A stretch of 64,000 bases of DNA. Origin: Centroscyllium fabricii (lineage: Eukaryota). Location: the NCBI GenBank assembly GCA_051313645.2, contig JBNRSN020000007.1:35526001-35590000 (forward strand), read 5' to 3'. The position numbers and the translations under genes were made by a program. The notes beneath the pieces were generated by a model that was not told where the DNA came from, ran no database searches, and was given only the letters and a program-made list of their open reading frames with translations. Of the stretch, positions 12,400-62,003 are shown piece after piece; the first letter of the stretch is position 1; each line of letters opens with the position of its first letter.

Positions 12400-12674
12400 T
12401 GACGTAACGTCAATTGGTCTTAATAAAAGACTGGCCGAGTAGTTACCGTAACTAAAGGCTTTTATTAACTTACTATGGAGCTACCCTCCGAACGAACATC
12501 AGAACAGAATGAGGGAGCCTCGGTCAGTCCTCACCTATAAAGGCCTCACCTGGGGGAGGAGTTAGAGGTGTGGCTGACCTGGCTCCACGACAGTATTACA
12601 GGGCTGTGTATCACACACAGCCAATTGTTGGCGACAATAATACAGTGGTAATATATACAATATGGGTTACCACA
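12400..12674 (-). mobile_element. Solo Gypsy LTR related to 29305-33034
   Basis: TGACG...ACCACA, shared blocks (GAGTAGTTACCGTAACTAAAGGCTTTT, GGGGGAGGAGTTAGAGGTGTGGC), TSD GTTTG; empty site in inverted arm near 15845. Confidence 0.9.
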
Positions 12675-13362: not shown

Positions 13363-14389
13363 CAGGTACACAATCCCTTATCCGCAACTCCAAAAACCAA
13401 AAAGCTCCGGAAACCCAAGTCCAGGGTTACACCAAAATAATAATTTTTTTCTTAAATAAATTGAAGCTGCAGCAGAAAAAACACGTTCCTACCCCGATCT
13501 CGTGCTGTTGATGCCGTGCTGAGGAAAAAAACAGCCGATCGCCCTCCAAACAGCCGATTCTCCGCTCTACACGGCTGACCCCCCCACGCTCTAAACGGTC
13601 GATCTCCCGCTCTAAACGGTCGATCTCCCGCTCTAAACGGTCGATCTCCCGCTCTAAACGGTCGATCTCCCGCTCTAAACGGTCGATCTCCCGCTCTAAA
13701 CGGTCGATCTCCCGCTCTAAACGGTCGATCTCCCGCTCTAAACGGTCGATCTCCCGCTCTAAACGGTCGATCTCCCCGCTCTAAACGGCCGATCCCCCCG
13801 CTCTAAACGGCCGATCCCCCCGCTCTAAACGGCCGATCCCCCCGCTCTAAACGGCCGATCCCCCCGCTCTAAACGGCCGATCTCCCCGCTCTAAACGGCC
13901 GATCTCCCGCTCTAAACGGCCGATCTCCCGCTCTAAACGGCCGATCTCCCGCTCTAAACGGCCGATCTCCCGCTCTAAACGGCCGATCTCCCGCTCTAAA
14001 CGGCCGATCTCCCGCTCCAAACGGCCGATCTCCCGCTCCAAACGGCCGATCTCCCGCTCCAAACGGCCGATCTCCCGCTCCAAACGACGATTCTCCGCTC
14101 TAAACGCCGATTCTCCCGCTCTAAACGGTCGATCTCCCGCTCTAAACGGTCGATCTCCCGCTCTAAACGGTCGATCTCCCGCTCTAAACGGCCGATCTCC
14201 CGCTCTAAACGGCCGATCCCCTGCTCTAAATGGCCGATATGCCGTTCCCCGACTGCAAGCTGGGCCACAAACACGGTAATGCACATGCAATCCGTGCATG
14301 CGCACTGGGGCCAACTCTAAAAACTGTGTTTATCCGAAAACCGAAAACCGCCCGCTCCCGAGGTTTTTGGATAAAGGGTTGTGTACCTG
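13363..14389. mobile_element. pogo/Tigger-like MITE carrying a minisatellite
   Basis: TIRs CAGGTACACAATCCCTTATCC / GGATAAAGGGTTGTGTACCTG, TA TSD. Confidence 0.88.
13530..14240. repeat. 21-bp minisatellite (CTCTAAACGGYCGATCTCCCG), about 30 copies
   Basis: Directly visible tandem array; source of spurious LEREIGR ORFs. Confidence 0.97.
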
Positions 14390-17000: not shown

Positions 17001-17257
17001 CAAAACTTGCAATAAGTAAAGTTTTATTTTAAAACCTGGCACTGTATGAAGTTTTACCACACGGGTAACATCTCAGAAACAAGCCCTGCATACAGGAAGC
17101 AAATCCTTTTCCAGAGGCTTGCTGCAACAAAATTAGAGAGTTCCTGCACTGCCTTGATGTTTGACATTTCTGGTTACTGCACCAGTATTTGAGCACATAA
17201 TCAGACTGATTATCCAAGAATACAAATCAACTGGTCATTTATCTCTGTTAATGTGTG

Positions 17258-17680
17258 TGACACTCATACACACTCGCATACACTCATACACGCTCGCATA
17301 CACTCATACACGCTCGCATACACTCATACACGCTCGCATACACTCATACACGCTCGCATACACTCATACTCGCATGCACTCGTACACGCTCGCATGCACT
17401 CATAAATGCTCGCATACACTCATACACGCTCGCATACACTCACACTCGCATACACTCATACTCGCATACACGCACTCCCACGCACTCAGCCACTCGCTCC
17501 GACGCCCTCGCTCCGACGCCCTCGCTCCGACGCCCTCGCTCCGACGCCCTCGCTCCGACACGCTCGCACACTCGCTCGCACACTCGCTCACACACCTACA
17601 CGTCGCATACACTCATACATGCTCGCATACACTCACAGACACTCGTACACACTCACATACACTCGTACACACTCGCATCT
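17258..17680. repeat. CA-rich compound mini/microsatellite
   Basis: 20-bp unit CACTCATACACGCTCGCATA with embedded CCCTCGCTCCGACG repeats. Confidence 0.95.
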
Positions 17681-18295
17681 GACCAACCCGTCTATTATAC
17701 CTGTAGCCCGAGGCTTCCCTCCTTGCTATTTACCGCTCCACCAATTTTCGTGTCATCTGCGAACTTACCGATCATACCTCCTACATTCATATCTAAATCA
17801 TTAATGGACACTACAAACAGCAAAGGACCCAGCATTGATCCCTACGGTACGCCACTGGACACAGACTTCCAGTCACAAAAACAACCTTCGACCATCACCC
17901 TCTGCCTCCTGCCACTAAGCCAGTTTTGGATCCAATGTGCCAAATTGCCCTGGATCCCATGGGCCCTTACCTTCTTGACCAGTCTCCTATGTGGGACTTT
18001 ATCAAAAGCCTTACTGAAATCTATGTAGACTATATCAACTGCACTACCCTCATCCACACACCTAGTCACCCCCTCTCAAAATTCAATCAAATTAGTTAGA
18101 CATGATTTTCCCTTGACAAAGCCATGCTGACAATCCTTGATTAATCCTTACCGCTCCAAGTGGAGACTAATTCTGTCCCTCAGAATTTTTTCCAATAATT
18201 TCCCTACCGCTGATGTTAGACTCACTGGCCTGTAATTCCCTGGTTTATCCCGACTGCCCTTCTTGAATAATGGCACTACGTTAGCTGTCCTCTGG
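17680..18295 (-). mobile_element. CR1 RT fragment
   Basis: VDIVYIDFSKAFDKVPH...WIQNWLSGRRQRV...SGVP. Confidence 0.9.
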
Positions 18296-28853: not shown

Positions 28854-29574
28854 TCTGGGTCAGTAGGTTGCGAGTTCAAGCTGCATTACAGGAGTGGAGT
28901 TTATCATCTGAACTGACACTTCAGTGAAGTGGCACTGGGCTGTCTGCGGTGCCAGCATTTGAATGAGTTTGTAAGCTGTGGATTCGTCTGCCTGTTTCAG
29001 TGGTGCAGATGGATGGAAATAGATCCTTTGGCATTATTTGAAGAGGAGCAGGGAATTCTCCTGGTGTTTCTGGCATCTTATAGAATCATGCAGCAAAAAA
29101 AGGAGGCCATTGGGCCCATCGTGCCTGTGCCAGCTCTGTGCCTGTATGAGCTCTCCAGTTAGTCCCTCTCACATGCTCTTTCCCCATAGCCCTGCAAATG
29201 TTTTAGAAACATAGAAGATAGGAGCAGGAGTAGGCCATTTGGCCCTTTGAGCCTGCTCCGCCATTCAATGAGATCATGGCTGATCATCCAAACCCAGTAC
29301 CCCGTGACGTATCGTCAATACCTTCGATTAAAAGAGTCGACGAGTAGTTACCGTAACGAAAGGCTTTTAATCGCTAAGATTGGAGCTAACCTCCGGAACG
29401 AACTTCTGTACAAGAATGAGGAGTCTCGGTCAGTTTCCACCTATAAAGGGCCTCACCTGGGGGAGGAGTTAGAGGTGTGGCTGACCTGGCTCCCAACAGT
29501 ATTACACAGGTTACAGGGCTGTGCCTTACATCTGCACAGCCCATTATTGGCACAATAATACAGTGGTAAAACAA

Positions 29575-31182
29575 CTACATAAAAGGGTTACCACATTCAC
29601 CCCTTCTTGAAAATTTTAAGTCCGGGGGGGGTGAATGGGCTGAACAATTCACGATCAGTCTGTCCGGCGGTCGCGTCTGCCTGGAGGACCGCCGGCGTTC
29701 CGGTGTTGGTGGTGGTGCCTCCTGGTTCGTACCACTCGCGTCTGCCGGTGGTGACCGCTGATCGGGTGCCGTGGCTTCTGGTGGCGATGGATCCAGCTGG
29801 TCCCCGCCGTCCGGGTCGAAATTCTGTACTGGCCACTGCTGGGGCTCTGGGAAGCTCAGGGGCCATCGTGTGTCTGGTGGGTTCTCCGAATACAGTGGCT
29901 GAGCGGCCTGCTGGCCGGCCAGGGGCTCTGCGGTGGTGCTTCCTGCGGGAGCCAGGTCCCTGATGGACACGGTGTCCTCACGCCTGTCCGGGAACTGCAC
30001 GAATGCATAGTGTGGGTTTGCGTGTAGGAGCTGTACCTTGTCCACCAGGGGGTCTGTCTTGTGGCTCCGGACATGTCTCCTAAGCAAAACCGGCCCCGGA
30101 GTCGTCAGCCATGGAGGAAGAGCTGTCCCCGAAGTCGATTTCCTGGGGAAGGAGAAAATCAGATCATGCGGGGTGGCGTTAGTAGCAGTACATAATAGAG
30201 AGCATATAGAGTGCAGCGCGTCTGGGAGGACTGCCTGCCAATGGGACACTGGAAGGCCTCTGGACTTCAGAGCCAGGGTGACCGCCTTACAAATGATCCC
30301 ATTCTCCCTTTCTACCTGGCTGTTCCCCCGGGGGTTATAACTGGTCGTTCTGCTCGTGGCAACCCCTTTCTGGAGCAGAAACTGGCGCAGTTCATCGCTC
30401 ATGAATGATGACCCCCGGTCGCTATGGATGTAGCTGGGGAGACCGAAAATGGCGAACAGCGTGGTGAAGTGTTTTATCACCGTTGCGCTCGTCATATCTG
30501 CGCAGGGGAAGGCGAAGGGGAAGCGGGAAAACTCATCCACTACCGTGAGGAAGTATGAGTTGCGGTCGGTGGAAGGGAGGGGGCCCTTGAAGTCCACGCT
30601 GAGACGTTCAAAGGGGCGGGTGGCCTTAATGAGGTGCGCCGTGTCTGGCCGGAAAAAGTGGGGTTTGCACTCGGCGCAGACAGGGCACTCTCGGGTCATA
30701 GCCTTGATCTCCGTGATGGAGATGGGGAGGCTACGGGAGTTAACGAAGTGGGCGAGTCTGGTGACACCCGGGTGGCAAAGGCGGTCGTGGAGGTCCTTCA
30801 GCCGGTCTAGCTGGGCACTGGCGCACGTTCCCCATGACAGCGCATCCGGGGGTTCATTGAGTTTATCTGGTCGGTAAAGAATGTCGTACTCGTAAGTCGA
30901 GAGTTCGATCCGCCACCGCAGGATCTTATCATTCTTGATTTTACCCCGTTGTTTATTATTAAACATAAAAGCCACCGACCGTTGGTCGGTGAGCAGGGTA
31001 AAACGCTTACCAGCCAGGTAATGATGCCAGTAGCGCACGGCCTCCACGATGGCCTGGGCCTCCTTTTCCACTGCAGAGTGGCGAGTTTCGGGTCCCTGTA
31101 AGGTGCGGGAGAAAAACGCTACGGGCCTGCCTGCCTGATTCAGGGTGGCAGCAAGGGCAAAGTCCGAAGCGTCACTCTCCAC
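29575..31182 (-). CDS. pol: Gypsy Pol RNase H plus integrase portion
   Basis: ESDASDFALAA (RNase H), H-x4-H/C-x2-C, VDFKGP...HSDRGSSF...VERENG (DDE integrase). Confidence 0.93.
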   Translation of the reverse strand: MESDASDFALAATLNQAGRPVAFFSRTLQGPETRHSAVEKEAQAIVEAVRYWHHYLAGKRFTLLTDQRSVAFMFNNKQRGKIKNDKILRWRIELSTYEYDILYRPDKLNEPPDALSWGTCASAQLDRLKDLHDRLCHPGVTRLAHFVNSRSLPISITEIKAMTRECPVCAECKPHFFRPDTAHLIKATRPFERLSVDFKGPLPSTDRNSYFLTVVDEFSRFPFAFPCADMTSATVIKHFTTLFAIFGLPSYIHSDRGSSFMSDELRQFLLQKGVATSRTTSYNPRGNSQVERENGIICKAVTLALKSRGLPVSHWQAVLPDALHSICSLLCTATNATPHDLIFSFPRKSTSGTALPPWLTTPGPVLLRRHVRSHKTDPLVDKVQLLHANPHYAFVQFPDRREDTVSIRDLAPAGSTTAEPLAGQQAAQPLYSENPPDTRWPLSFPEPQQWPVQNFDPDGGDQLDPSPPEATAPDQRSPPADASGTNQEAPPPTPERRRSSRQTRPPDRLIVNCSAHSPPPDLKFSRRGECGNPFM

Positions 31183-31384
31183 CTGGACTGGACTGTGAGC
31201 GTGACGGAGCAGTAGCCGGTGACGTCCGCGGTGTGGGACTGTGAAGCTAGGGAGACTTGGTAGTTAGTGGGCCGGACCTGCAGTCCGCAGCGCTGCACTG
31301 TATCGGGGTGTACGAAGCTCTGTGCTTCCTGTGTCAAACAGGCAGTTAACAGTGTAGTCGTTAATCTTGATTGGCATAATAGTA

Positions 31385-32719
31385 TTAGACAGGGTATGTG
31401 GCCTGTCCTGGTTCACTGAGTCTGGCCGCCGCAGCCGTGCGTTTCCGTGTGCGTGGGGCCCTTGCTGGTCGGGGCTGTACACAAGATGGCGGCGCCCCTG
31501 GCTCGCACATGGTGGGGCCCTGGATACAAGATGGCGGCGCCCCTGGCTCGCACATGGCGGGGCCCTGGAAACAAAATGGCGGCGCCCCTGGCTCGCACAT
31601 GGAGGGGCCCTGGATACAAAATGGCGTCGCTGAGGGGTCGCACATGGTGGGCCGCTGTGAGCGCGCTGGCGGCGCCCGTGATTCGCACGCAGCGGACCGC
31701 GGTGGTCGGGTTGGCGGTGCCCGTGATTTGCACGCAGCGAGCCGCGGTGGTCGGGTTGGCGGTGCCCGTGATTGGCACGCAGCCGGCCGCGTTGGGGGGT
31801 CGCGCTTGGCCGGCCTTTGCCGCATCGGGGTGGGAGATGGGGGCGCTTGTTGTCTACCCCCGGACCGTCGCTGGATCGCGCTGCTATTGCAGCTTACCTG
31901 GTGTCTGTCGGTGCTCTCACAGGCTGCACTGTTGTACCTTGGGTTAGTCGCTGCTGGAGCTGATCTGCAGGCTTTAGCGTAGTGTCCTTTCTTAGCGCAC
32001 CTCTCACAGGTCGCTGTCCTGGCTGGGCATCTCGCTCTTGGGTGCAGTCCCTGGCTGCAGAAGTAGCAGCGCTTATCTTTAGTGACTGTCGCAGCCATCG
32101 TGGGGGTCTCGGCCCGTTGTGGTGCTGCCCAGGCCTGGGCCCGTTGTGGCGCGGCCCATATGTCGTAGGCTTGCGGGTTGGTGCCGCTGTACGCCTGTAG
32201 TTTGTTTCGGGCCCCCTCTACTGAGTTGGCTATCTTAATCGCCTCCTCGAGGGACAGAGTGTCTCTCTCCAGTAGCCGCTGGCGGGCTTCCACACACCTT
32301 AGTCCCGTAACATAAGCGTCCCGAACGAGGAGATTCGCCTTCTCTTCAGCTGTTCTGGCTTGGCAGCCACAGACCCGTACCAGGGCCTGGAGCGCTTGCT
32401 CGAACTGCTCATTGGTCTCACCTGGTAGCTGAGATCTGGTCGCAAGCACATGTCGGGCGTAGACCGAATGGACCGGGCGCTCGTAGCATTTTCTTAGTTG
32501 CAGCACAGCCGCTGTGTAGGTTGAGGCGTTTCTGATGAGGGAGAATACCCTGCTGGAGATCCTCGACCGGAGGACCTGCAATTTGTTCCTGTCCGATGTA
32601 GCCTTGGCGGCGTCCATGTAGGCCTCCAGGAGGCCGAACCAGTGTTCGAACGTGGTAGCAGCGGCCAGGTCCTGGGGACTGATGTCCAGCTTCTCAGGTT
32701 TAACTGCGCTGCTCTCCAT
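31385..32719 (-). CDS. gag: Gypsy Gag with two CCHC knuckles
   Basis: CYFCSQGLHPRARC and CERCAKKGHYAKAC; repeat-expanded C-terminal region; frameshifted before protease (LFDTGS near 31330). Confidence 0.9.
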   Translation of the reverse strand: MESSAVKPEKLDISPQDLAAATTFEHWFGLLEAYMDAAKATSDRNKLQVLRSRISSRVFSLIRNASTYTAAVLQLRKCYERPVHSVYARHVLATRSQLPGETNEQFEQALQALVRVCGCQARTAEEKANLLVRDAYVTGLRCVEARQRLLERDTLSLEEAIKIANSVEGARNKLQAYSGTNPQAYDIWAAPQRAQAWAAPQRAETPTMAATVTKDKRCYFCSQGLHPRARCPARTATCERCAKKGHYAKACRSAPAATNPRYNSAACESTDRHQVSCNSSAIQRRSGGRQQAPPSPTPMRQRPAKRDPPTRPAACQSRAPPTRPPRLAACKSRAPPTRPPRSAACESRAPPARSQRPTMCDPSATPFCIQGPSMCEPGAPPFCFQGPAMCEPGAPPSCIQGPTMCEPGAPPSCVQPRPARAPRTRKRTAAAARLSEPGQATYPV

Positions 32720-33292
32720 TAAAAAATATTTAGCGATTAAAATTGACGTATCGTCAATACCTTCGATTAAAAGAGTCGACGAGTAGTTACCGTAACTAAA
32801 GGCTTTTAATCGCTAAGATTGGAGCTAACCTCCGGAACGAACTTCTGTACAGGAATGAGGTGCCTCGGTCAGTTTCCACCTATAAAGGGCCTCACCTGGG
32901 GGAGGAGTTAGAGGTGTGGCTGACCTGGCTCCCAACAGTATTACACAGGTTACAGGGCTGTGCCTTACATCTGCACAGCCCATTATTGGCACAATAATAC
33001 AGTGGTAAAACAACTACATAAAAGGGTTACCACACCCCGCCCCTGCCCTCTCCCCATATCCCTCGATCCCTATCGAGCCTGCACCGACACACATCCCACC
33101 CTATCCCCGTAACCCCACATATTCAATCCCCCCAGCACTAAGGGTCAATTTATCCTGGCCAATCAACCTAACCCGCACATCTTTGGACTGTGGGAGGAAA
33201 CCGGAGCACCCGGAGGAAACCCACGCAGACACGGGGAGAATGTGCAAACTCCACACAGATAGCACCCGAGGCTGGATTTGAACCCGGGTCTC

Positions 33293-38773: not shown

Positions 38774-39341
38774 GAGGTTGAGCACCGTTAATCCAGCACC
38801 CTTGGGACCAGGCCGGTGCCGGACCACTGAAAATTCCGAACCACTGAAGGTTCGGGGGGAGCGCGTGGTAGAATATTCCCCAGGACCCAGAGTGCGCGGT
38901 TAGAACACTCCCTGGGAGGGAGCCCGGGGATCGAACACTCCCCGGGGCCCGGAGCACGCGGGTAGAACACTCCTCGGGGCCCGGAGCACGCGGGTAGAAC
39001 ACTCCTCGGGGCCCGGAGCGTGCGGGTAGAACACTCCCCGGGGCCCGGAGCGCGCGGGTAGAACACTCCCCGGGGCCCGGAGCGCACGGTAGAACACTCC
39101 CCGGGGCCCGGAGCGCGCGGGTAGAACACTCCCTGGGAGGGAGCCCGGGGATAGAACACTTACAGAACCTAAAAAAACAGAAACCCAAACACCTGACGCC
39201 TTCGGCGCTTGCTCACCCTTCCTGGGAAACGGTGGCGCCGCCGAGCAGCTGCTCCGCAAATTGGAGAGCGCCGGTTTCCAATCGTGCCGGACCACTGAAG
39301 TTGCCGCACCATCGGGTGCCTGATTACTGGTGCGCAACCTG
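38774..39341. mobile_element. pogo/Tigger-like MITE with expanded 32-bp repeat
   Basis: Reverse complement of 8325-8672; unit GGTAGAACACTCCCCGGGGCCCGGAGCGCGCG. Confidence 0.88.
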
Positions 39342-41765: not shown

Positions 41766-41848
41766 GTGAGTAGAGACTTTGTAATGCAAGCTGCAGTTTC
41801 TATCTCCCTCCCTCTGGAACTAAAGGCATTTGTTTTTAGTGACGCCTC

Positions 41849-44800
41849 TGTGACCGAAATAACGACCTCGTGGACGAGTAGTTAAGAGGATGAAACAATT
41901 AGGCTTTTATTCACTAAAAGTGGACATGCACCAGCTAGTCGACCGTCTCCAGGAATGGCAGGGGGAAGGGAGACGGCCGCTTATGTACCTGGTCCCGGAA
42001 GGGAGGAGTCGCAGGCGGGGCCAGCATAGGCATGTCCAGGTAATCGTACACAGTGAACTATAATACAACATGGTGAATAGTACGATTACAACGATACATA
42101 TATATACATAAAAGAGTGGATATATATACATAAAAGAGTGGTTTACCACATTCACCCCTTCTTTAAAACGAAAGTCCAGCGGGGTGAATGCGACAGTTCT
42201 TTTAATTTACAGGTTCAGTCTTTCAGGCGGCCTGGTAAGCCTGGTGGAACGGCGCACCGCTGGTGGTGTCGGCGGGCGTGAAATAGCCGGTTGTGTTGGT
42301 CGCCCCGCTGGTGATGGTGTCGGTGGGCGTACGATAGCCGGCTGAGTTGGTTGGTTCCTCGTCGGTGCCCTTGCGGTGGCTTGGTTCCTCGTCGGTGCCC
42401 TTGCGGTGACGGTTGGCGGCGCGCTCTCCCCCTCATCGTCTGACTCTAGGGGCCGTGTGCTATGGAGCCATGCTGGAGGCCATGCCGTGCTGCCTACAGG
42501 TGCCGGGTGGACGTACCGTGGTGCCTGATTCTCGTGCCGGGGAGCGTACCTTGGTGCCGGTGGCCCGGGTGGGGTGGCTGGCAAGCGCGGGGTTGCGGGC
42601 TGCTGGGCGGGGCTGGTTTTGGGGGCCCCCGCTGGTGCCAGGTCCTTGATGGACACTGTGTCCTCCCTCCCGTCGGGGTACGCCACGTAGGCATACTGGG
42701 GATTGGCGTGCAGGAGGTGGACCCGTTCGACCAGGGGGTCTGCCTTGTGGCCCCTCACGTGCTTCCGGAGTAGGACTGGTCCCGGGGATAATAGCCACGA
42801 TGGCAGCGAGGTCCCAGAAGCCGACTTCCTGGGGAAGGCAAAAAGTCACTCGTGAGGGGTGGCATTAGTAGCCGTACAAAGGAGTGACCGGATCGAGTGG
42901 AGCGCTTCGGGGAGGACGTCCTGCCAGCGTGAGACTGGGAGGCCTTTAGACCGTAGGGCTAACAGGATGGCCTTCCAGACAGTGGCGTTCTCCCTCTCTA
43001 CCTGTCCGTTCCCCCGGGGGTTGTAGCTGGTAGTCCTGCTAGTAGCGATGCCTTTGGCTAGCAGGAACTGACGCAGCTCGTCACTCATGAAAGAGGCCCC
43101 CCGGTCGCTATGGATGTAGCTGGGGTAGCCGAACAGGGAGAAAATGCTGTGGAGGGCCTTGATGACTGTGGCAGAGGTCATGTCCGGGCAGCGGATGGCA
43201 AAGGGGAAGCGTGAGTACTCGTCGATGACGTTAAGGAAGTACACGTTCCTGTTGGCGGAGGGAAGGTGCCCTTTAAAATCGACGCTGAGTCGTTCAAAGG
43301 GGCGGGTGGCCTTGATCAGATGCGCCCGGTCTGGCCGATAGAAGTGCGGCTTGCACTCCGCACAGACCTGGCAGTTGCTGGTCATGGTCTTGACCTCCTC
43401 GATGGAGTAGGGAAGGTTGCGGGAATTCACAAAGTGAACCAACCTGGTGACCCCCGGGTGGCAGAGGTCGTTGTGCAGGGTTTGGAGACGGTCTACTTGT
43501 GCACTGGCACATGTACCGCGGGATAGGGCGTCTGGGGGTTCGTTGAATTTCCCGGGCCGGTACAAGATATCATAATTGAAAGCGGAGAGCTCAATTCTCC
43601 ACCTTAATATCTTGTCGTTCTTGATTTTACCCCGCTCTTTGTTGTTGAACATAAAAGCGACTGAGCGTTGGTCAGTCAGCAGGGTAAATCGTTTGCCAGC
43701 CAGGTAGTGCTTCCAGTGACGCACTGCTTCAACAATGGCCTGGGCCTCCTTCTCGACTGAGGAGTGACGGGTCTCGGGGCCCTGGAGGGTACGTGAGAAG
43801 AAGGCCACGGGTCTGCTCGCCTGGTTAAGGGTGGCGGCCAGGGCAAAGTCCGATGCATCGCTCTCGACCTGGAACGGGACCGACTCGTCCACAGCATGCA
43901 TCGTTGCCTTTGCAATGTCGTCCTTAATGCAGCAGAACGCCGCGCGGGCATCTGCTGACGGGGAATGAGGTTGATTTAAGTAGTGGGCGAGCTTTGTCCG
44001 CATAGTTGGGGACCCACTGGGCATAATAGGCGAAGAACCCCAAGCACCTTTTGAGGGCCTTGAGGGGGAGGGGGAGCTCCAGGAGGGGACGCATGCGGTC
44101 CGGGTCGGGACCGATGACCCCATTCTCCACAATACTGCCGAGGATGGCGAGGCGGGTGGTCCTGAACACACAGAAAAATGTGTGTTATAGGTCAGGTTGA
44201 GTGTTTTGGCGGTGTGGAGAAATTTCTGGAGGTTGGCGTCGTGGTCCTGCTGATCGTGGCCGCAGATGGTCACATTATCGAGATACGGGAAAGTGGCTCG
44301 CAGCCCGTACTGATCGACTATTCGGTCCATCTCCCTTTGGAAGACCGAGACCCCATTCGTGACGCCAAACGGGACCCTGAGGAAGTGATAGAGGCGACCG
44401 TCAGCCTCGAAGGCAGTATAGAGACGGTCCTCTGGGCGAATGGGGAGCTGGTGATACGCGGACTTCAGATCTATGGTTGAGAAAACCCGAAACTGCGCGA
44501 TCTGATTAACCATGTCCGCTATCCGGGGAAGGGGGTACGCGTCTAACTGGGTGAACCGGTTAATGGTCTGGCTATAGTCCACTACCATCCGGTTCTTAGC
44601 TCCGGTCTTCACCACCACTACCTGCGCCCTCCAGGGGCTGTTACTGGCCTCGATGACCCCCTCCCTCAGGAGGCGCTTCACCTCGGACTTAATGAAGTCC
44701 ATGTCCCCGGCACTGTAGCGCCTACTTTTGGTGGCGACGGGCTTGCAGTCCGGGGTGAGGTTAGCAAAGAGCGAGGGAGGGGCGACCTTAAGGGTCGAGA

Positions 44801-46508
44801 GGCCACAGGTAGCGCGCTGTGGATGCTGCGAGGAGCGCCGGTTGTAGACCGTGAGCGGGGGAAGGGGCCCACCGTACGCCATGGTAATGCTTTGGAGGTG
44901 GCACTGGAAGTCCAGGCCCAATAATAATGGAGCGCAGAGCTGCGGCAGTACGAAAAATGTAAAATTATTAAAGTGCACGCCCCGTACTGTTAGAGCCACT
45001 GCGCAACGTCCGGGGACGTCCGCGGATTCCGACTTTGATGCCATTGAGATCTTTTGGCTCGCCGGCTTGACCTTAAGGGAGAGGCGCCTTACTGTTTCTG
45101 GGTGGACAAAACTCACCGTGCTCCCGCTGTTGAAGAGGCACTCGACGTCTTGTCCGTTCACTTCCACTGTCATCATTGACTTGCCAAGTGGTTGAGCCTT
45201 GTTCTGATCCAAGGTGACTGAAGCTAATATCGGATCGGTCGAGTCGTCTTGATCCGTAGAGAAGTCGTCTGGGGCCTGGCCCCAAGATGGCTGCCGCCAT
45301 GTGGTGTACTGCGGAGGGGGTGGCTGAGACCAAGATGGCGTCTGCTGCCACGCGGTGGGCTGTGTTGAGGATGGCTGTGTCCAAGATGGCTGCCCCCACG
45401 TCCCACACGCGGCGCTGCCCGGTTTCGGTTGCGGCACTGCAGTTGCTCTGCAGACTTTGGCGCAGTGTCCCTTTTTGCCGCATTTCGAGCAGGCCGCGTC
45501 TCTTGCCTGGCAGCTCCGTCTCGGATGCTGAGGCTTCCCGCAGAAGTAGCATTTGGCCGTCTTAGAGCGAGCGGCCGCAGTCATTTCTTCCACCGGCCGC
45601 GGTGCCGGCGATGTCCAATTTGTCGGGGCTGGGCCCGCGTAGTTTCCAGAGTATGATGATAAATTCAACGATGCCACATCCAGCGCGTTGTCCAGGTCCG
45701 CTGTTGCCTGCAGGTCAAGGCCGTTCTGCTCTAACAGCCTTTGACTAATATAGTCCAACCTGAGGCCCGTCACATACGCGTCCCTGATCAGGCTGTCCAC
45801 ATGGACCTGGGCCGATTGCGCTCTGCAGTCACAGGCCCGGGAGAGTAGTCGCAGCGCGCGTAGGAATTCCACGCTGGACTCACCGGGTTGCTGTTTTCTG
45901 GTAGCCAAGAGGTGTCTGGCGTGGACGATGTTGGGTGCCCGGTTGTACTCCGCTTTGAGGATCCGGATTGCATCCAAGTACGATGATGCGCCTACGATCA
46001 TGGAGTATACCTGAGGGCCCACCCGGGCATTGAGAAGACGTCGTTTGTCTTCTTCGGTCCTGACGACCGCTGCGTTCGCCTTGATGAACGCATCAAAGCA
46101 GTCGAACCAGTGCGAAAAGGTATTTGATGCGCCTGGTGTCCGGGGGTCCAGCTCGAACGTTGTTGGCTTGAGCATTGCTTCCATCGTCAAATTTAGTGAA
46201 TAAAATTGTGACCGAAATAACGACCTCGTGGACGAGTAGTTAAGAGGATGAAACAATTAGGCTTTTATTCACTAAAGGTGGACATGCACCAGCTAGTCGA
46301 CCGTCCCCAGGAATGGCAGGGGGAAGGGAGACGGCCGCTTATGTACCTGGTCCCAGAAGGGAGGAGTCGCAGGCGGGGCCAGCATGGGCATGTCCAGGTA
46401 ATCGTACACCGTGAACTATAATACAACATGGTGAATAGTACGATTACAACGATACATATATATACATAAAAGAGTGGATATATATACATAAAAGAGTGGT
46501 TTACCACA
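41849..46508 (-). mobile_element. Near full-length Gypsy LTR retrotransposon (intronic, antisense)
   Basis: 302-bp LTRs (41849-42150, 46207-46508, about 5 mismatches), TSD GCCTC, PPT AAGAAGGGGTGAA, single gag-pol in PR-RT-RH-IN order. Confidence 0.97.
42207..46184 (-). pseudogene. gag-pol: Gypsy gag-pol polyprotein, disrupted
   Basis: Two CCHC knuckles, protease site reads LFNSGS (Asp lost), RT DLKSAYHQ...VPFG...YLDN, RNase H, integrase; frameshifts near 44170, 43955 and 42850. Confidence 0.92.
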
Positions 46509-46980
46509 GCCTCCTTGAACTCCGCCCCCACTTGCAAGGCCGCGTTCCCGCCTGGGACTTAAAATCGGACCCCCTGAAAGTCAGCAGGCTCTGCAACCGA
46601 GGAAGGCATCACAGCTGGGTCCAAACCTGTTGTTCCCTGGAACTCCCTCCCTAACAGCATTGTGGGACTACCTTCATCACATGAACTGCAGCGGTTCAGG
46701 ACGGTGGCTCACCACCACCTTCTCAAGGTCAACTAGGGATGGGCAATAAATGCTGACCTTGCCAGTGATGCCCACATCCCATGAACGAATAAAAAAAAAA
46801 AAATGTTGGATGAGGGATAAATCTTGGCCAAGGCACCGGGGATAACTGCCCTGCTCTTCTTTGAAATACTGCCATGGGATCTTTTACATCTCCTTCAAAA
46901 GACAGATTCCGTCATTATCGTGTTGATGGGTGAGACAGCTTGGAGAAGTTAGGGGTAATTTTGCCGGCACTCAGGGTGGG

Positions 46981-58078: not shown

Positions 58079-58859
58079 CATCTCACCAGCCTGGGGTGAA
58101 TTCAAACTCCGATTCCAAAAGTGGTGATGTTCGTACTTCTCACCGTGCATCCAGTTGGTTTCATTTATGCTTAAAAAATTTTTTAAATGAAAGGAATTTC
58201 TCTGCCATTTTAGAGTTTAATGTGATAAATTGACTTGGTATAAAAATATAGGTCCTGAAATTGCGGTTCGGAGGCTTCCTGCGGGCTAATGCCTCCGAAC
58301 CGCAAGTAAAATCTGTACTTAACTCATGGCCCCGGACCTACGAAGCCTCGCACTTCTGAGCCTGCGGGCGTAGGCCTGCGTAAAGGCCCACGTATCCCAG
58401 GGGCGCATGCGGTTCGTGAGTGTCCCTGGGAATCACGTGGGCCGGCCCAACTAATCACAAAGGGGGATTCCCGTTACGTAAGGAATCCCCATCAGCACAA
58501 TAGGAATGACATAACAAATACACTTTCACAGCACTGAAATAAAAATAAATCACCACATGTTTAAAATGAATTAAAATACAATTTAGTTAAACATTCAAAA
58601 CAAAAAATTGATTTTTTGAAAAAAATGTAAACATTATTTTTTAATGTTTTAATGATTTAAAAAAGTTATTTTAATATTTATTTAAACTCTTATGCTGGTA
58701 AAAGAAGGCCTTCTGCCTGCTTTTACTGGCCTAAGAGTTTCGTGGACATTCGCTGGGCAGTAGTTGGGTCTCCGCCAGCGAATGTTCATTTCCCGCGGAT
58801 TCGCGGATCCAAGCTGAAACTCGACAGATCACAAGTTTCGGGTTTTCACATATGTGCTT

Positions 58860-59807
58860 TGATGCGCTAATCAATCACGCAAGTCTTTCGTGGATCGTAA
58901 TCAAAGGCTTTTATTCGCTAAGAACAAGACCTGGTCCGCGATGAGTCCTGCCCGGAATGAGAGTCAGGTGGGCGGAGCATCCTCCTTTATACTCATACCC
59001 GGAGGCGGGGTCAGCTGGTCCAGGTGCTTACAGAAAGGAACAACTTTATTAGCACAAACTATATACAATACAGGTTGAGCACCGTTAATCCGTGTCCCGA
59101 ATAGCCGGCAGCTTCAGTCTGCCGGCACAAATTGCCCCGACTGCACTGCGCATGCGCAAAATGGCAGCCCCCATCGTGGCTTCAGCGAATGATCTGCGCA
59201 TGCGCCGAGCGCATGTGCAGATCATTCAAAACAGCTGCGGGTGTTTTGAATGATCTGCGCATGCGTCACCTGACGGTTAGCGCATGCGCAGATAAATTCA
59301 ATACGGCCGCCCGTTATTTTCTCGATCCGAAACAACAGAAATCTCTGGAGAAACTCAGCAGGCCAGGCAGCATCTGAAGAAAGGTCATCGACCTGAAACG
59401 TTAACTCTGCTTCTCTCTCCACCGATGCTGCCTGGCCTGCTGAGTTTCTCCAGCGTTTTCTGTTATTACTTCAAAATGATCATAGTCACACAGCTGTTGC
59501 TTAGTGACTGAGGCGGACAGTCACTAAGCAACAGCTGTCAGCCTGAGTCCCGCTCGGCGGCAGCAGCAACCCCAAAGGCGATGGAGAGGGACGGCGGACC
59601 CGGGCCCGATCTGCGCATGCGCGCGCCAGCTAATCGCAATGCTGCGCGCATGCGCGCGGCCATTTTGCCTGGCGCGCATGCGCAGTGTCCAAACTCGTTC
59701 TCCCGGTTTTTTCCATTTCCCGGCACGGGCCTGGTCCCGCCCGTGCCCGATTAACGGTGCTCAACCTGTAATAACACAGTGTGAACTACACTAAATGGTT
59801 CACCACA
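58860..59807 (-). mobile_element. Solo Gypsy LTR interrupted by a MITE
   Basis: TGATG...ACCACA, AAAGGCTTTTATTCGCTAAG motif shared with the other Gypsy LTRs; flanked by a 60-bp direct repeat. Confidence 0.8.
59071..59768. mobile_element. pogo/Tigger-like MITE with hairpin-rich interior
   Basis: TA-CAGGTTGAGCACCGTTAATC...GATTAACGGTGCTCAACCTG-TA. Confidence 0.9.
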
Positions 59808-60237
59808 TTCGCGGATCCAAGCTGAAACTCGACAGATCACAAGTTTCGGGTTTTCACATATGTGCTTCACACGCAGAAACCCGGAACTTGCGGGGCAGTT
59901 ATGTTTGCGTACGCTGTCCGTATGCGGTCATGGGTTCCAGAAAATCTGGGCCATTATTTATTTTGGCAGTGGTAAGTATGCAAGATAATATTGGGAGAAA
60001 TCCCCTCCTGCTCTCTAATGGGATAATGTAAACAATGTACTTTCCCCTCTAATTCTTCAAAGGCACAGTTTCTTCATGCTGGTTTGCATGTCTAATGAAC
60101 AACTTTCACCCTTAGTCCTTCTTCATTTATAGACATCCTTGTCTTATCTTTTTTTCTTTCTTTTTAGTATCTCTTCTGAAAAACTTGCATTTATATAGCT
60201 TCTTCCACATCCTGCAGGATGTCCCAAAGTGCTTCAT

Positions 60238-62003
60238 ATCAAAGTTTGCAGACAATACAAAGATGGGAGGGAGTGTGATGAGTGAGGAGGACATTAAAAA
60301 CCTGCAAAAGGACATAGACAGGCTAAATGAGTGGGCAGAGATTTGGCAGATGCAATATAATACTGGTTGAGCACCGGTAATCCGGCACTGGCGGGACCAG
60401 GCCGGTGCCGGGAAAGTGAAAATCCCGAACGATTGAAGCTTCGGCGAGTGCATGCGCAGACCATTCAAAATGGCTGCCGCGAAAGGCCGGTGGTCATTTT
60501 GAGTGGTCTGCGCATGCGCATATCGTTCGGCTTGGTAAGGCCCGGATCGGGAAGGCGAGGCCCGGCTCGGAAAGCCCCGGCCCGGTAAGGCGAGGCCGGG
60601 CTAGGGAAGGCTCGGTAAGGCGAAGCACTGGCCCAGCTCGGGAAGGCAAGGCCCGGCTTGGGAAGCTCCGGCCCGGCTCGGGAAGGGGAGGCCTGGCTCG
60701 GGAAGCCCCGGCTCGGGAAGGCGAGGCCTGGCTCGGGAAGGTTTGGTAAGGCGAGCCGAAGCCCGGCTCGGGAAGCCCCGGCCCGGCTCGGGAAGGCGAA
60801 GCTCCGGCTCGGTAAGGCGAGGCTCGGGATCGTTCGGCAGATCATTAAAAGCTTCGCGGTGGCCATTGTGAATGATTGGCACATGCGCTCGCCGTTTGGC
60901 AGCGCATGCGCAGATCATTTACTGAATCATCAATCGCGGCGGCCATTTTGCGCATGTGCAGGGCAGTCGGGGCAATTTGTTCAGAAGACTGAAGCTGCCG
61001 GCTTTTCGGGTAATGGATTAACGGTGCACAATCTGTAGTGGAAAGTGTGAGATTATGCACTTTGGTAGGAAAAATCATAGAGCGAGTTATTATCTTAATG
61101 GAAAGTACTTCAGTACAAAGGGATCTGGGGGTCCTGGTGCAGGAAACACAAAAAGTTAGTATGCAGGTGCAGCAGGTGGTCAGGAAGGCCAACGGAATGT
61201 TGGCTTTTATTGCTAAGGGGATGGAGTATAAAAGCAGGGAGGTCTTGCTGCAGTTGTACAGGGTATTGGTGAGACCACACCTGGAGTACTGCGTGCAGTT
61301 CTGGTATCCATATTTAAGAAAAGACATTCTTGCTCTCGAGGCAGTGCAAAGAAGGTTCACTTGGTTAATCCCGGGGATGAAGGGGCTGACATATGAGGAG
61401 AGGTTGAGTAGATTGGGCCTCTACTCGTTGGAGTTCAGAAGAATGAGAGGCGATCTTATTGAAACATATAAGCTTCTGATGCGGTGAGGATGTTCCCAAT
61501 GGTGGGTAAAACTAGGACTAGGGGGCATAATCTTAAAATAAAGGGCTGCCATTTCAAAACTGAGATGAGGTGAAACTTCTTCACTCAGAGGGTGGTGAGG
61601 CTGTGGAATTTGCTGCCCCAGAGAGCTGTGGAAGCTACAGCATTGAATACATTTAAAACAGAGATAGACAGTTTCCTAGAAGTAAAGGGAATTAGGGGTT
61701 ACGGTGAGCGGGCAGGAAAGTGGACGTGAGGCTAGGTTCAGATCGGCCATGTGATCTCCTGGACGAGTTTCGATTGCCTAGATGGGTCAGAGAGGAATTT
61801 CCCAGAATTTTTCTCCCAAATTGGCCACTGGGTTTTTTACCTGTGTTTTCGCCTCTCCCGGGAGATCACATGGGTTCAGGTGGGATGGAGAGTGAAAGTA
61901 GATTTGAGGTTAGGATCAGATCAGCCATGATCTTGTTGAATGGCGGAGCAGGCTCGAGGGGCCGATTGGCCGACTCCTGCTCCCATTTCTTATGTTCTTA
62001 TGT
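60238..62003 (+). mobile_element. CR1 3' fragment split by a MITE
   Basis: ISKFADNTK...WQMQYN (60238-60362) resumes at 61036; same subfamily as 652-1385. Confidence 0.92.
60363..61035. mobile_element. pogo/Tigger-like MITE with about 20-bp GC-rich minisatellite
   Basis: TA-CTGGTTGAGCACCGGTAATCC...GGATTAACGGTGCACAATCTG-TA; units like GCCCGGCTCGGGAAGGCGAG at 60525-60830. Confidence 0.88.

Follow-up and report, generated by a model that had tools for sequence, protein, structure and literature searches.

The window analysed here is a stretch of 64,000 nucleotides of the Centroscyllium fabricii genome (contig JBNRSN020000007.1, positions 35,526,001 to 35,590,000), and all coordinates refer to it. 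On its minus strand it contains element B (41849..46508), a full-length Ty3/gypsy LTR retrotransposon of 4.66 kb delimited by a pair of LTRs and by a 5-bp target-site duplication (TSD), GAGGC (46509-46513 and 41844-41848). The 5' LTR (46207..46508; 302 bp, TG...CA) and the 3' LTR (41849..42150) are 97.7% identical, and the latter is preceded by a polypurine tract (PPT; 42151..42163). The gag-pol region (42207..46184) codes for two tandem CCHC knuckles, protease, reverse transcriptase (RT), RNase H and integrase, and is broken by a stop codon at 42846-42848 and by a stretch after the RT core that lies out of frame. The order protease, RT, RNase H and integrase, together with the paired TG..CA LTRs, the PPT and the TSD, identifies a Ty3/gypsy LTR retrotransposon, and Ty3 Gag-Pol is the best solved relative of a homologous protein (P0004). 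We found no match to a chromodomain in the gag-pol region. The catalytic motif of the RT (P0001, 44200-44300) is YLDN, that is, YxDN and not YxDD; a literature search for the YLDN motif found nothing.

Positions 46192-46205 (TTTAGTGAATAAAA) and 46263-46276 are perfectly complementary in inverted orientation and enclose a loop of 57 nt, confirming the 14-bp perfect inverted repeat around U5 that had been described in an earlier note on this DNA. Read along the minus strand, the upstream arm (R arm, 46263..46276) terminates in AATAAA (46264-46269) plus one A and is followed by GCC, with cleavage predicted after 46263. The downstream arm (leader arm, 46192..46205), a putative primer-binding site (PBS), starts 1 nt beyond the terminal CA of the 5' LTR, which is the position of a tRNA PBS. 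The order on the sense strand is R arm (..AATAAAA), GCC, U5, terminal CA, one A, leader arm, 7 nt and the gag ATG; the 3' LTR contains the R arm without a leader partner. A TATA-like box, TACATAA (46339..46345), is predicted 31 nt upstream of the predicted transcription start site (TSS), the A of CCATTCC at 46314, with a spacing that is alike across families, and the segment from this start to the end of AATAAAA (46263..46314) would constitute a 52-nt self-primer. The window contains many further perfect inverted repeats of at least 12 bp with loops of up to 200 nt, so the repeat of element B is unremarkable by itself; its position and its covariation, described below, set it apart from random ones.

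Related elements in the window

Element A (29305..33034, minus strand; TSD CGGGG), from a family related to that of element B, has the same layout, with an R arm at 32804-32816 that pairs with the leader at 32730-32742 in a 13-bp helix of the ATTAAA variant. As the earlier note had it, the LTRs of the two elements are hard to align, their 57% global identity being little over the 48.5-51.7% obtained with 20 shuffles. The same note had called the helix of element B a second independent instance, which does not hold in the evolutionary sense: the two integrases are 78% identical and belong to one well-supported group of the integrase tree, and the helix is clade-wide (see below), indicating one inherited trait with compensatory changes. 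Both families of the window thus have the helix by descent.

Two further LTRs on the minus strand had been listed as solo LTRs. The one near 12457 (12400..12674; R arm 12460-12472), of an A-like family and 80% identical to the LTR of element A, is indeed solo and flanked by the TSD CAAAC, whereas the one near 58906 (58860..59807; R arm 58909-58921) is a lone LTR of a third family but not a clean solo, because it is split by an insertion of ~700 bp and flanked by a 60-bp direct duplication. The duplication (58800-58859 and 59808-59867) stands in place of 5 bp, and the insertion (about 59070-59769) is an element with terminal inverted repeats. Within U5, the A-like LTRs also carry a second, shorter stretch complementary to the polyA region (32763-32772 and 12419-12428), present in both LTRs. 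The window further holds tandem arrays at 13479-14327 (21-nt units), 17229-17712 (8-12-nt units), 38857-39152 (32-nt units) and 60529-60816 (15-20-nt units), as well as many dispersed LINE- and SINE-like repeats.

From the R arms of the LTRs near 12457 and 58906, the leaders of their full-length parents had been predicted. We used each LTR to retrieve 30 genome loci (60 in all). Of those retrieved with the LTR near 12457, 12 were 5' LTRs, and the prediction was borne out: 11 carried a leader perfectly complementary, over the 13 nt scored, to their own arm, and the remaining one had a single mismatch. Copies with AATAAA contain the leader TTTTATTAACTTA and those with ATTAAA contain TTTTAATAAC.., and in one A-like subfamily the second U5 complement failed to follow this change, which the leader did follow. 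The sole normal 5' LTR among the 30 loci for the LTR near 58906 carries TTTTATTCGCTAA, as predicted, with one mismatch located in the LTR arm; a second locus, a run-on copy (see below), bears the same leader. Because the 5' class was identified partly via the first bases of the leader, we looked for TGG directly after the LTR at all 60 loci and found it at only one, where it is host flank behind a 3' LTR. Neither a TGG-type tRNA PBS nor a leader that is not complementary to its own LTR motif, the findings that the note had set against its prediction, occurred among the 60 loci.

Leaders covary with their own LTRs

A search pattern made of leader and start codon, blind to the LTR, yielded 162,819 matches in the genome, compared with 57 for the reversed control; these ~163,000 sites amount to one per ~44 kb of the 7.2-Gb genome. 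For 90 of the first 100 pattern matches listed, we compared the leader, of which there were 29 distinct versions, with the LTR of the same element. The match was perfect over 13 nt in 70 and had one mismatch in 14, with six leaders lacking a good partner, whereas leaders matched the LTR of another element in only 436 of 8010 pairs (5.4%). The search pattern fixes several leader positions, so that the informative ones are 6, 8-10, 12 and 13, and all of these covary with the own LTR. Of the 1092 cells in the 84 elements with a partner, 1078 hold Watson-Crick pairs and three hold G-U, although, the elements being related, these cells are not independent events. The arms end in AATAAA or ATTAAA in 83 of the 84. 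A few leaders (L152, L169) match the arm of another subfamily better than their own, and no TGG-type or other conserved PBS was seen. Arm and leader are, therefore, complementary in a fixed register and covary across families. Chance and assembly artefact were both rejected as explanations, on the basis of the shuffle and cross-element controls and of the TSD-flanked palindromes described below.

The protein relatives have source names that include sharks, rays, a nematode, insects, cnidarians and a shrimp. From metagenomes we took 80 loci, 33 of them without a usable gag start, leaving 47 testable. A helix of 11-19 bp was present in 40 of these, many of which are copies of the same few families, and only 2 of 360 shuffles reached 11 bp; the other seven loci had no good partner. 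Where the ends of the metagenome elements are fixed by an LTR pair, the helix starts 1 nt after the CA, as it does in the window and in the genome copies, and the TSDs are mostly of 5 bp. The helix arms of several of these relatives (L233, L241, L268) contain no polyA hexamer. Two tandem Cys-His motifs were found in 96 of 123 stored proteins, many of the others being partial. The RT motif is YxDN in 94 of the 115 relatives in which it was readable (P0004-P0123), though the clade has been highly active; the helix is not linked to YxDN, because relatives with YLDD (L228, L247, L283, L287) also have the helix.

Run-on insertions

The leader of one TSD-flanked element runs on into reverse-complemented R, U3 and PPT sequence, a structure termed here a run-on insertion. 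Patterns for this arrangement matched 575 times in A-like families and 618 times in B-like families, roughly 0.7% of the leader count and with unequal coverage of families, and the reversed-pattern controls gave no match. We measured 120 of these loci (90 of the 575 and 30 of the 618) and dropped 29 (19 with no partner in their own LTR, eight with a truncated LTR and two duplicates), leaving 91 scorable.

In 75 of 84 elements, an initiator-like CATTC with a TATA-like box ~30 nt before it precedes the arm end by 51-54 nt; we used the spacing of these motifs to predict the TSS. Run-on arms reached the start of the LTR in 21 of the 91 loci. The other 70 comprised 26 arms ending at -1 to +2 of the predicted TSS, 27 shorter and 17 longer ones, corresponding to end densities per nt of 6.5 at the predicted TSS, 0.96 on its inner side and 0.12 past it (binomial p=1e-10 versus the shorter arms). 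In B-like run-ons alone, 11 of 27 scorable arms stop within one base of the predicted TSS. The commonest run-on template stops at the predicted RNA 5' end, and arms that end there are the expected trace of copying an attached RNA primer. After many arms comes sequence internal to the element, as though synthesis had picked up again downstream. Counting against copying from the primer, 38 of the 91 arms pass the predicted TSS, which needs either DNA snap-back or a template at the 3' end, and seven of the 21 full arms extend into the PPT complement.

Ten of the 21 full arms form palindromes, each flanked by its own 5-bp TSD, indicating that they formed before integration. Each is small and consists of LTR, leader and inverted U3-R, with two TG/CA U3 ends (L182, L192, L195, L293, L300, L310, L314, L330, L340 and L393). 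These insertions are integrated fold-back cDNA products, and so the plus strand already terminates in the leader when integration takes place, as expected of a PBS copy.

Copying of a cap should leave an extra C, which we saw in 14 of the 22 arms that stop at the TSS and in 11 of the 28 that stop elsewhere (Fisher p=0.15). In the genome as a whole, 44 matches end at the initiator A, and the base that follows is A in 23, C in 14 and T in seven. An extra cap-derived C in run-ons is, thus, only suggestive. Contigs over the 5' region from four DNA runs showed no strand-change joint at the helix, a result that counts neither way, as contigs drop rare forms.

A model for self-priming

We consider it very probable that these elements prime themselves in some form, and likely that the leader is the PBS for a predicted primer of ~52 nt, cleaved off the 5' end of the RNA of the element itself. 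Transcription is predicted to begin ~52 nt upstream of the arm end, and the RNA to fold the R arm onto the leader around U5. A cut after AATAAAA and before GCC, probably made by the RNase H of the element by analogy with Tf1, would free a 3'-OH facing U5, from which minus-strand DNA would be primed, the capped piece of ~52 nt leading synthesis across U5 and what is left of R, the short remainder that strand transfer would then use. Plus-strand synthesis would extend 13-15 nt into the attached primer and so template the PBS anew in every cycle, which we propose is why the pairs stay Watson-Crick. In roughly 1% of products, this synthesis would run on, often to the 5' end of the primer, and generate the run-on insertions. 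The helix would also conceal the 5' polyA signal, a likely side benefit.

Folds of the RNA from the TSS to gag gave helix pair probabilities of mostly 0.93-1.0 for elements A and B. A small GGWG/CWCC hairpin, as defined by a loose pattern, precedes the arm in 74 of 84 elements and might help to limit normal copying. Counting against the model, the predicted cut may leave strand transfer with no more than ~15 nt of R. A search for poly(A)-tailed copies gave 23 matches that collapse to nine places, compared with five for the control, and the one that resembles these LTRs is too weak to place the polyA site.

Alternatively, the primer could be the R arm of the 3' LTR, with the 3' end of the genomic RNA trimmed to AATAAAA and paired with the leader, circularising the RNA. 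This arrangement would keep all of the upstream R free for strand transfer, fits the covariation and the register equally well, and agrees with the 21 of 91 run-on arms that traverse U3, seven of them entering the PPT complement. Nevertheless, snap-back of plus-strand DNA also explains full arms, the folds give the local 5' helix a high probability, and the clustering of arm ends at the predicted TSS (26 of 70) calls for a template that stops there, whereas the 3' R continues into U3; we therefore regard priming from the 3' R as unlikely.

The HIV-1 polyA hairpin masks the polyA signal of the 5' LTR, and the helix described here could merely do the same, with an unknown host RNA priming reverse transcription. 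The arms ending in AATAAA or ATTAAA (83 of 84) also fit such a role, and the absence of a leader at the 3' LTR would free the signal there. However, masking neither requires the 1-nt register nor explains the run-on arms that stop at the TSS, the helix remains where the hexamer is missing and G-U pairs are nearly absent; moreover, there is no TGG or other conserved PBS in these leaders, and one host primer could not serve 29 leader variants. Masking as the only function seems highly improbable, and the evidence points to a primer-binding site over a mere polyA-masking hairpin. Least probable of all is priming in trans by a short R-only transcript, polyA-ended in the 5' LTR or made by a solo LTR and trimmed to the duplex by a host nuclease, RNase H making no cut in cis: any capped R RNA would fit the arms that stop at the TSS, solo LTRs are common and the leaders of L152 and L169 favour another subfamily's arm, but 84 of 90 leaders track their own LTR despite many coexisting subfamilies, and the cis helix would occupy the site.

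Comparison with known elements

Self-priming from the element's own RNA 5' end, the reading that we prefer, has its closest parallel in the Tf1/sushi group (Tf1, Tf2, Tj1, sushi-ichi and Tcn1), whose PBS is likewise complementary to the own R, with no tRNA. According to the accessible text of the sources, self-priming is common to Tf1/sushi chromoviruses (10.1101/2022.12.06.519325; PMC4600332), and Tf1 RNA uses its first 11 nt to pair with the PBS, with RNase H cleavage falling between nt 11 and nt 12 (PMC7175516). The predicted fold of element A, with flanking helices and a hairpin at the end of U5, recalls the Tf1 'pretzel' as it appears in the available text (10.1101/2022.12.06.519325). Likewise, about half of Tf1 cDNA is described as retaining a PBS copy at its 3' end (PMC11042837, in part). 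Tf1, as described in these sources, uses the extreme 5' end of its RNA, whereas the arm lies here at about +39 to +52 from the predicted TSS and ends at the polyA signal.

The elements also differ from Tf1/sushi in having no chromodomain: no match to Chromo or SH3_Tf2-1 domains was found in the window frames or in seven of seven full-length relatives, and their integrases are 25-37% identical to those of the SH3_Tf2-1 elements of this genome. In a quick integrase tree that included no outgroup or named reference, a long branch separated 28 rows of the clade from 10 SH3_Tf2-1 rows, one of which has, by eye, a chromodomain-like tail. Sushi-like elements bearing SH3_Tf2-1 are numerous in the genome (31,090 candidates, including L422-L441). 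The best reading is a Tf1-like self-priming with a long primer from an internal arm, in a lineage distant from Tf1/sushi.

Tandem CCHC knuckles are characteristic of Gag in Mag-type elements (Mag, SURL, Jule), and element B has two such motifs. The single gag-pol, the 5-bp TSD and the short LTRs are further likenesses, as far as the available text of PMC3286476 goes. The Mag elements described in its Culex table use a tRNA-Leu/Ser PBS (one Arg), whereas the present ones have no TGG-type PBS, and their RT motif is mostly YxDN. The present elements thus resemble Mag in Gag and TSD, yet we do not file them as Mag, the comparison being by description. Saci2 was rejected as a name for the clade, since it has a TSD of 4 bp in the accessible part of PMC12471100, versus 5 bp here, a comparison by TSD only. 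Outside Tf1/sushi, tRNA-free self-priming has also been predicted for the TAR lineage of Ty1/copia (Houba, Osr-1), according to the available text of PMC6317226; this lineage, however, belongs to the Copia superfamily and to plants.

Implications

Our literature search, whose scope lay outside subscription journals and Repbase reports, found no account of the helix or of self-priming in non-chromovirus gypsy elements of animals, and the accessible portions of PMC3601003, PMC6934838, PMC8220671, PMC5006619, PMC7472051 and PMC12471100 do not describe the helix; prior notice elsewhere is possible. The helix is real and clade-wide, and most likely represents a new form of self-priming. So far, self-priming has been described in Tf1/sushi chromoviruses and, as a prediction, in a single copia lineage of plants; a second gypsy lineage with another geometry would demonstrate more than one loss of tRNA dependence. 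We lean, if only slightly, towards a broader reading, in which LTR replication without tRNA arose separately, and animal-wide, in a non-chromovirus gypsy lineage, a cut at the polyA signal would yield a capped primer of ~52 nt, one helix would both silence the 5' polyA signal and prime cDNA, and over a thousand fossil intermediates would map primer and start without RNA.

With about 163,000 5' ends in a 7.2-Gb genome, the group is very abundant; it could make up a large share of the genome and may be a major driver of its size. Elements of this kind would evade silencing by tRNA fragments aimed at tRNA PBSs, and we predict that PBS finders miss or mis-call them. Run-on insertions, in turn, provide a general readout, from sequence only, of primer length and start site.
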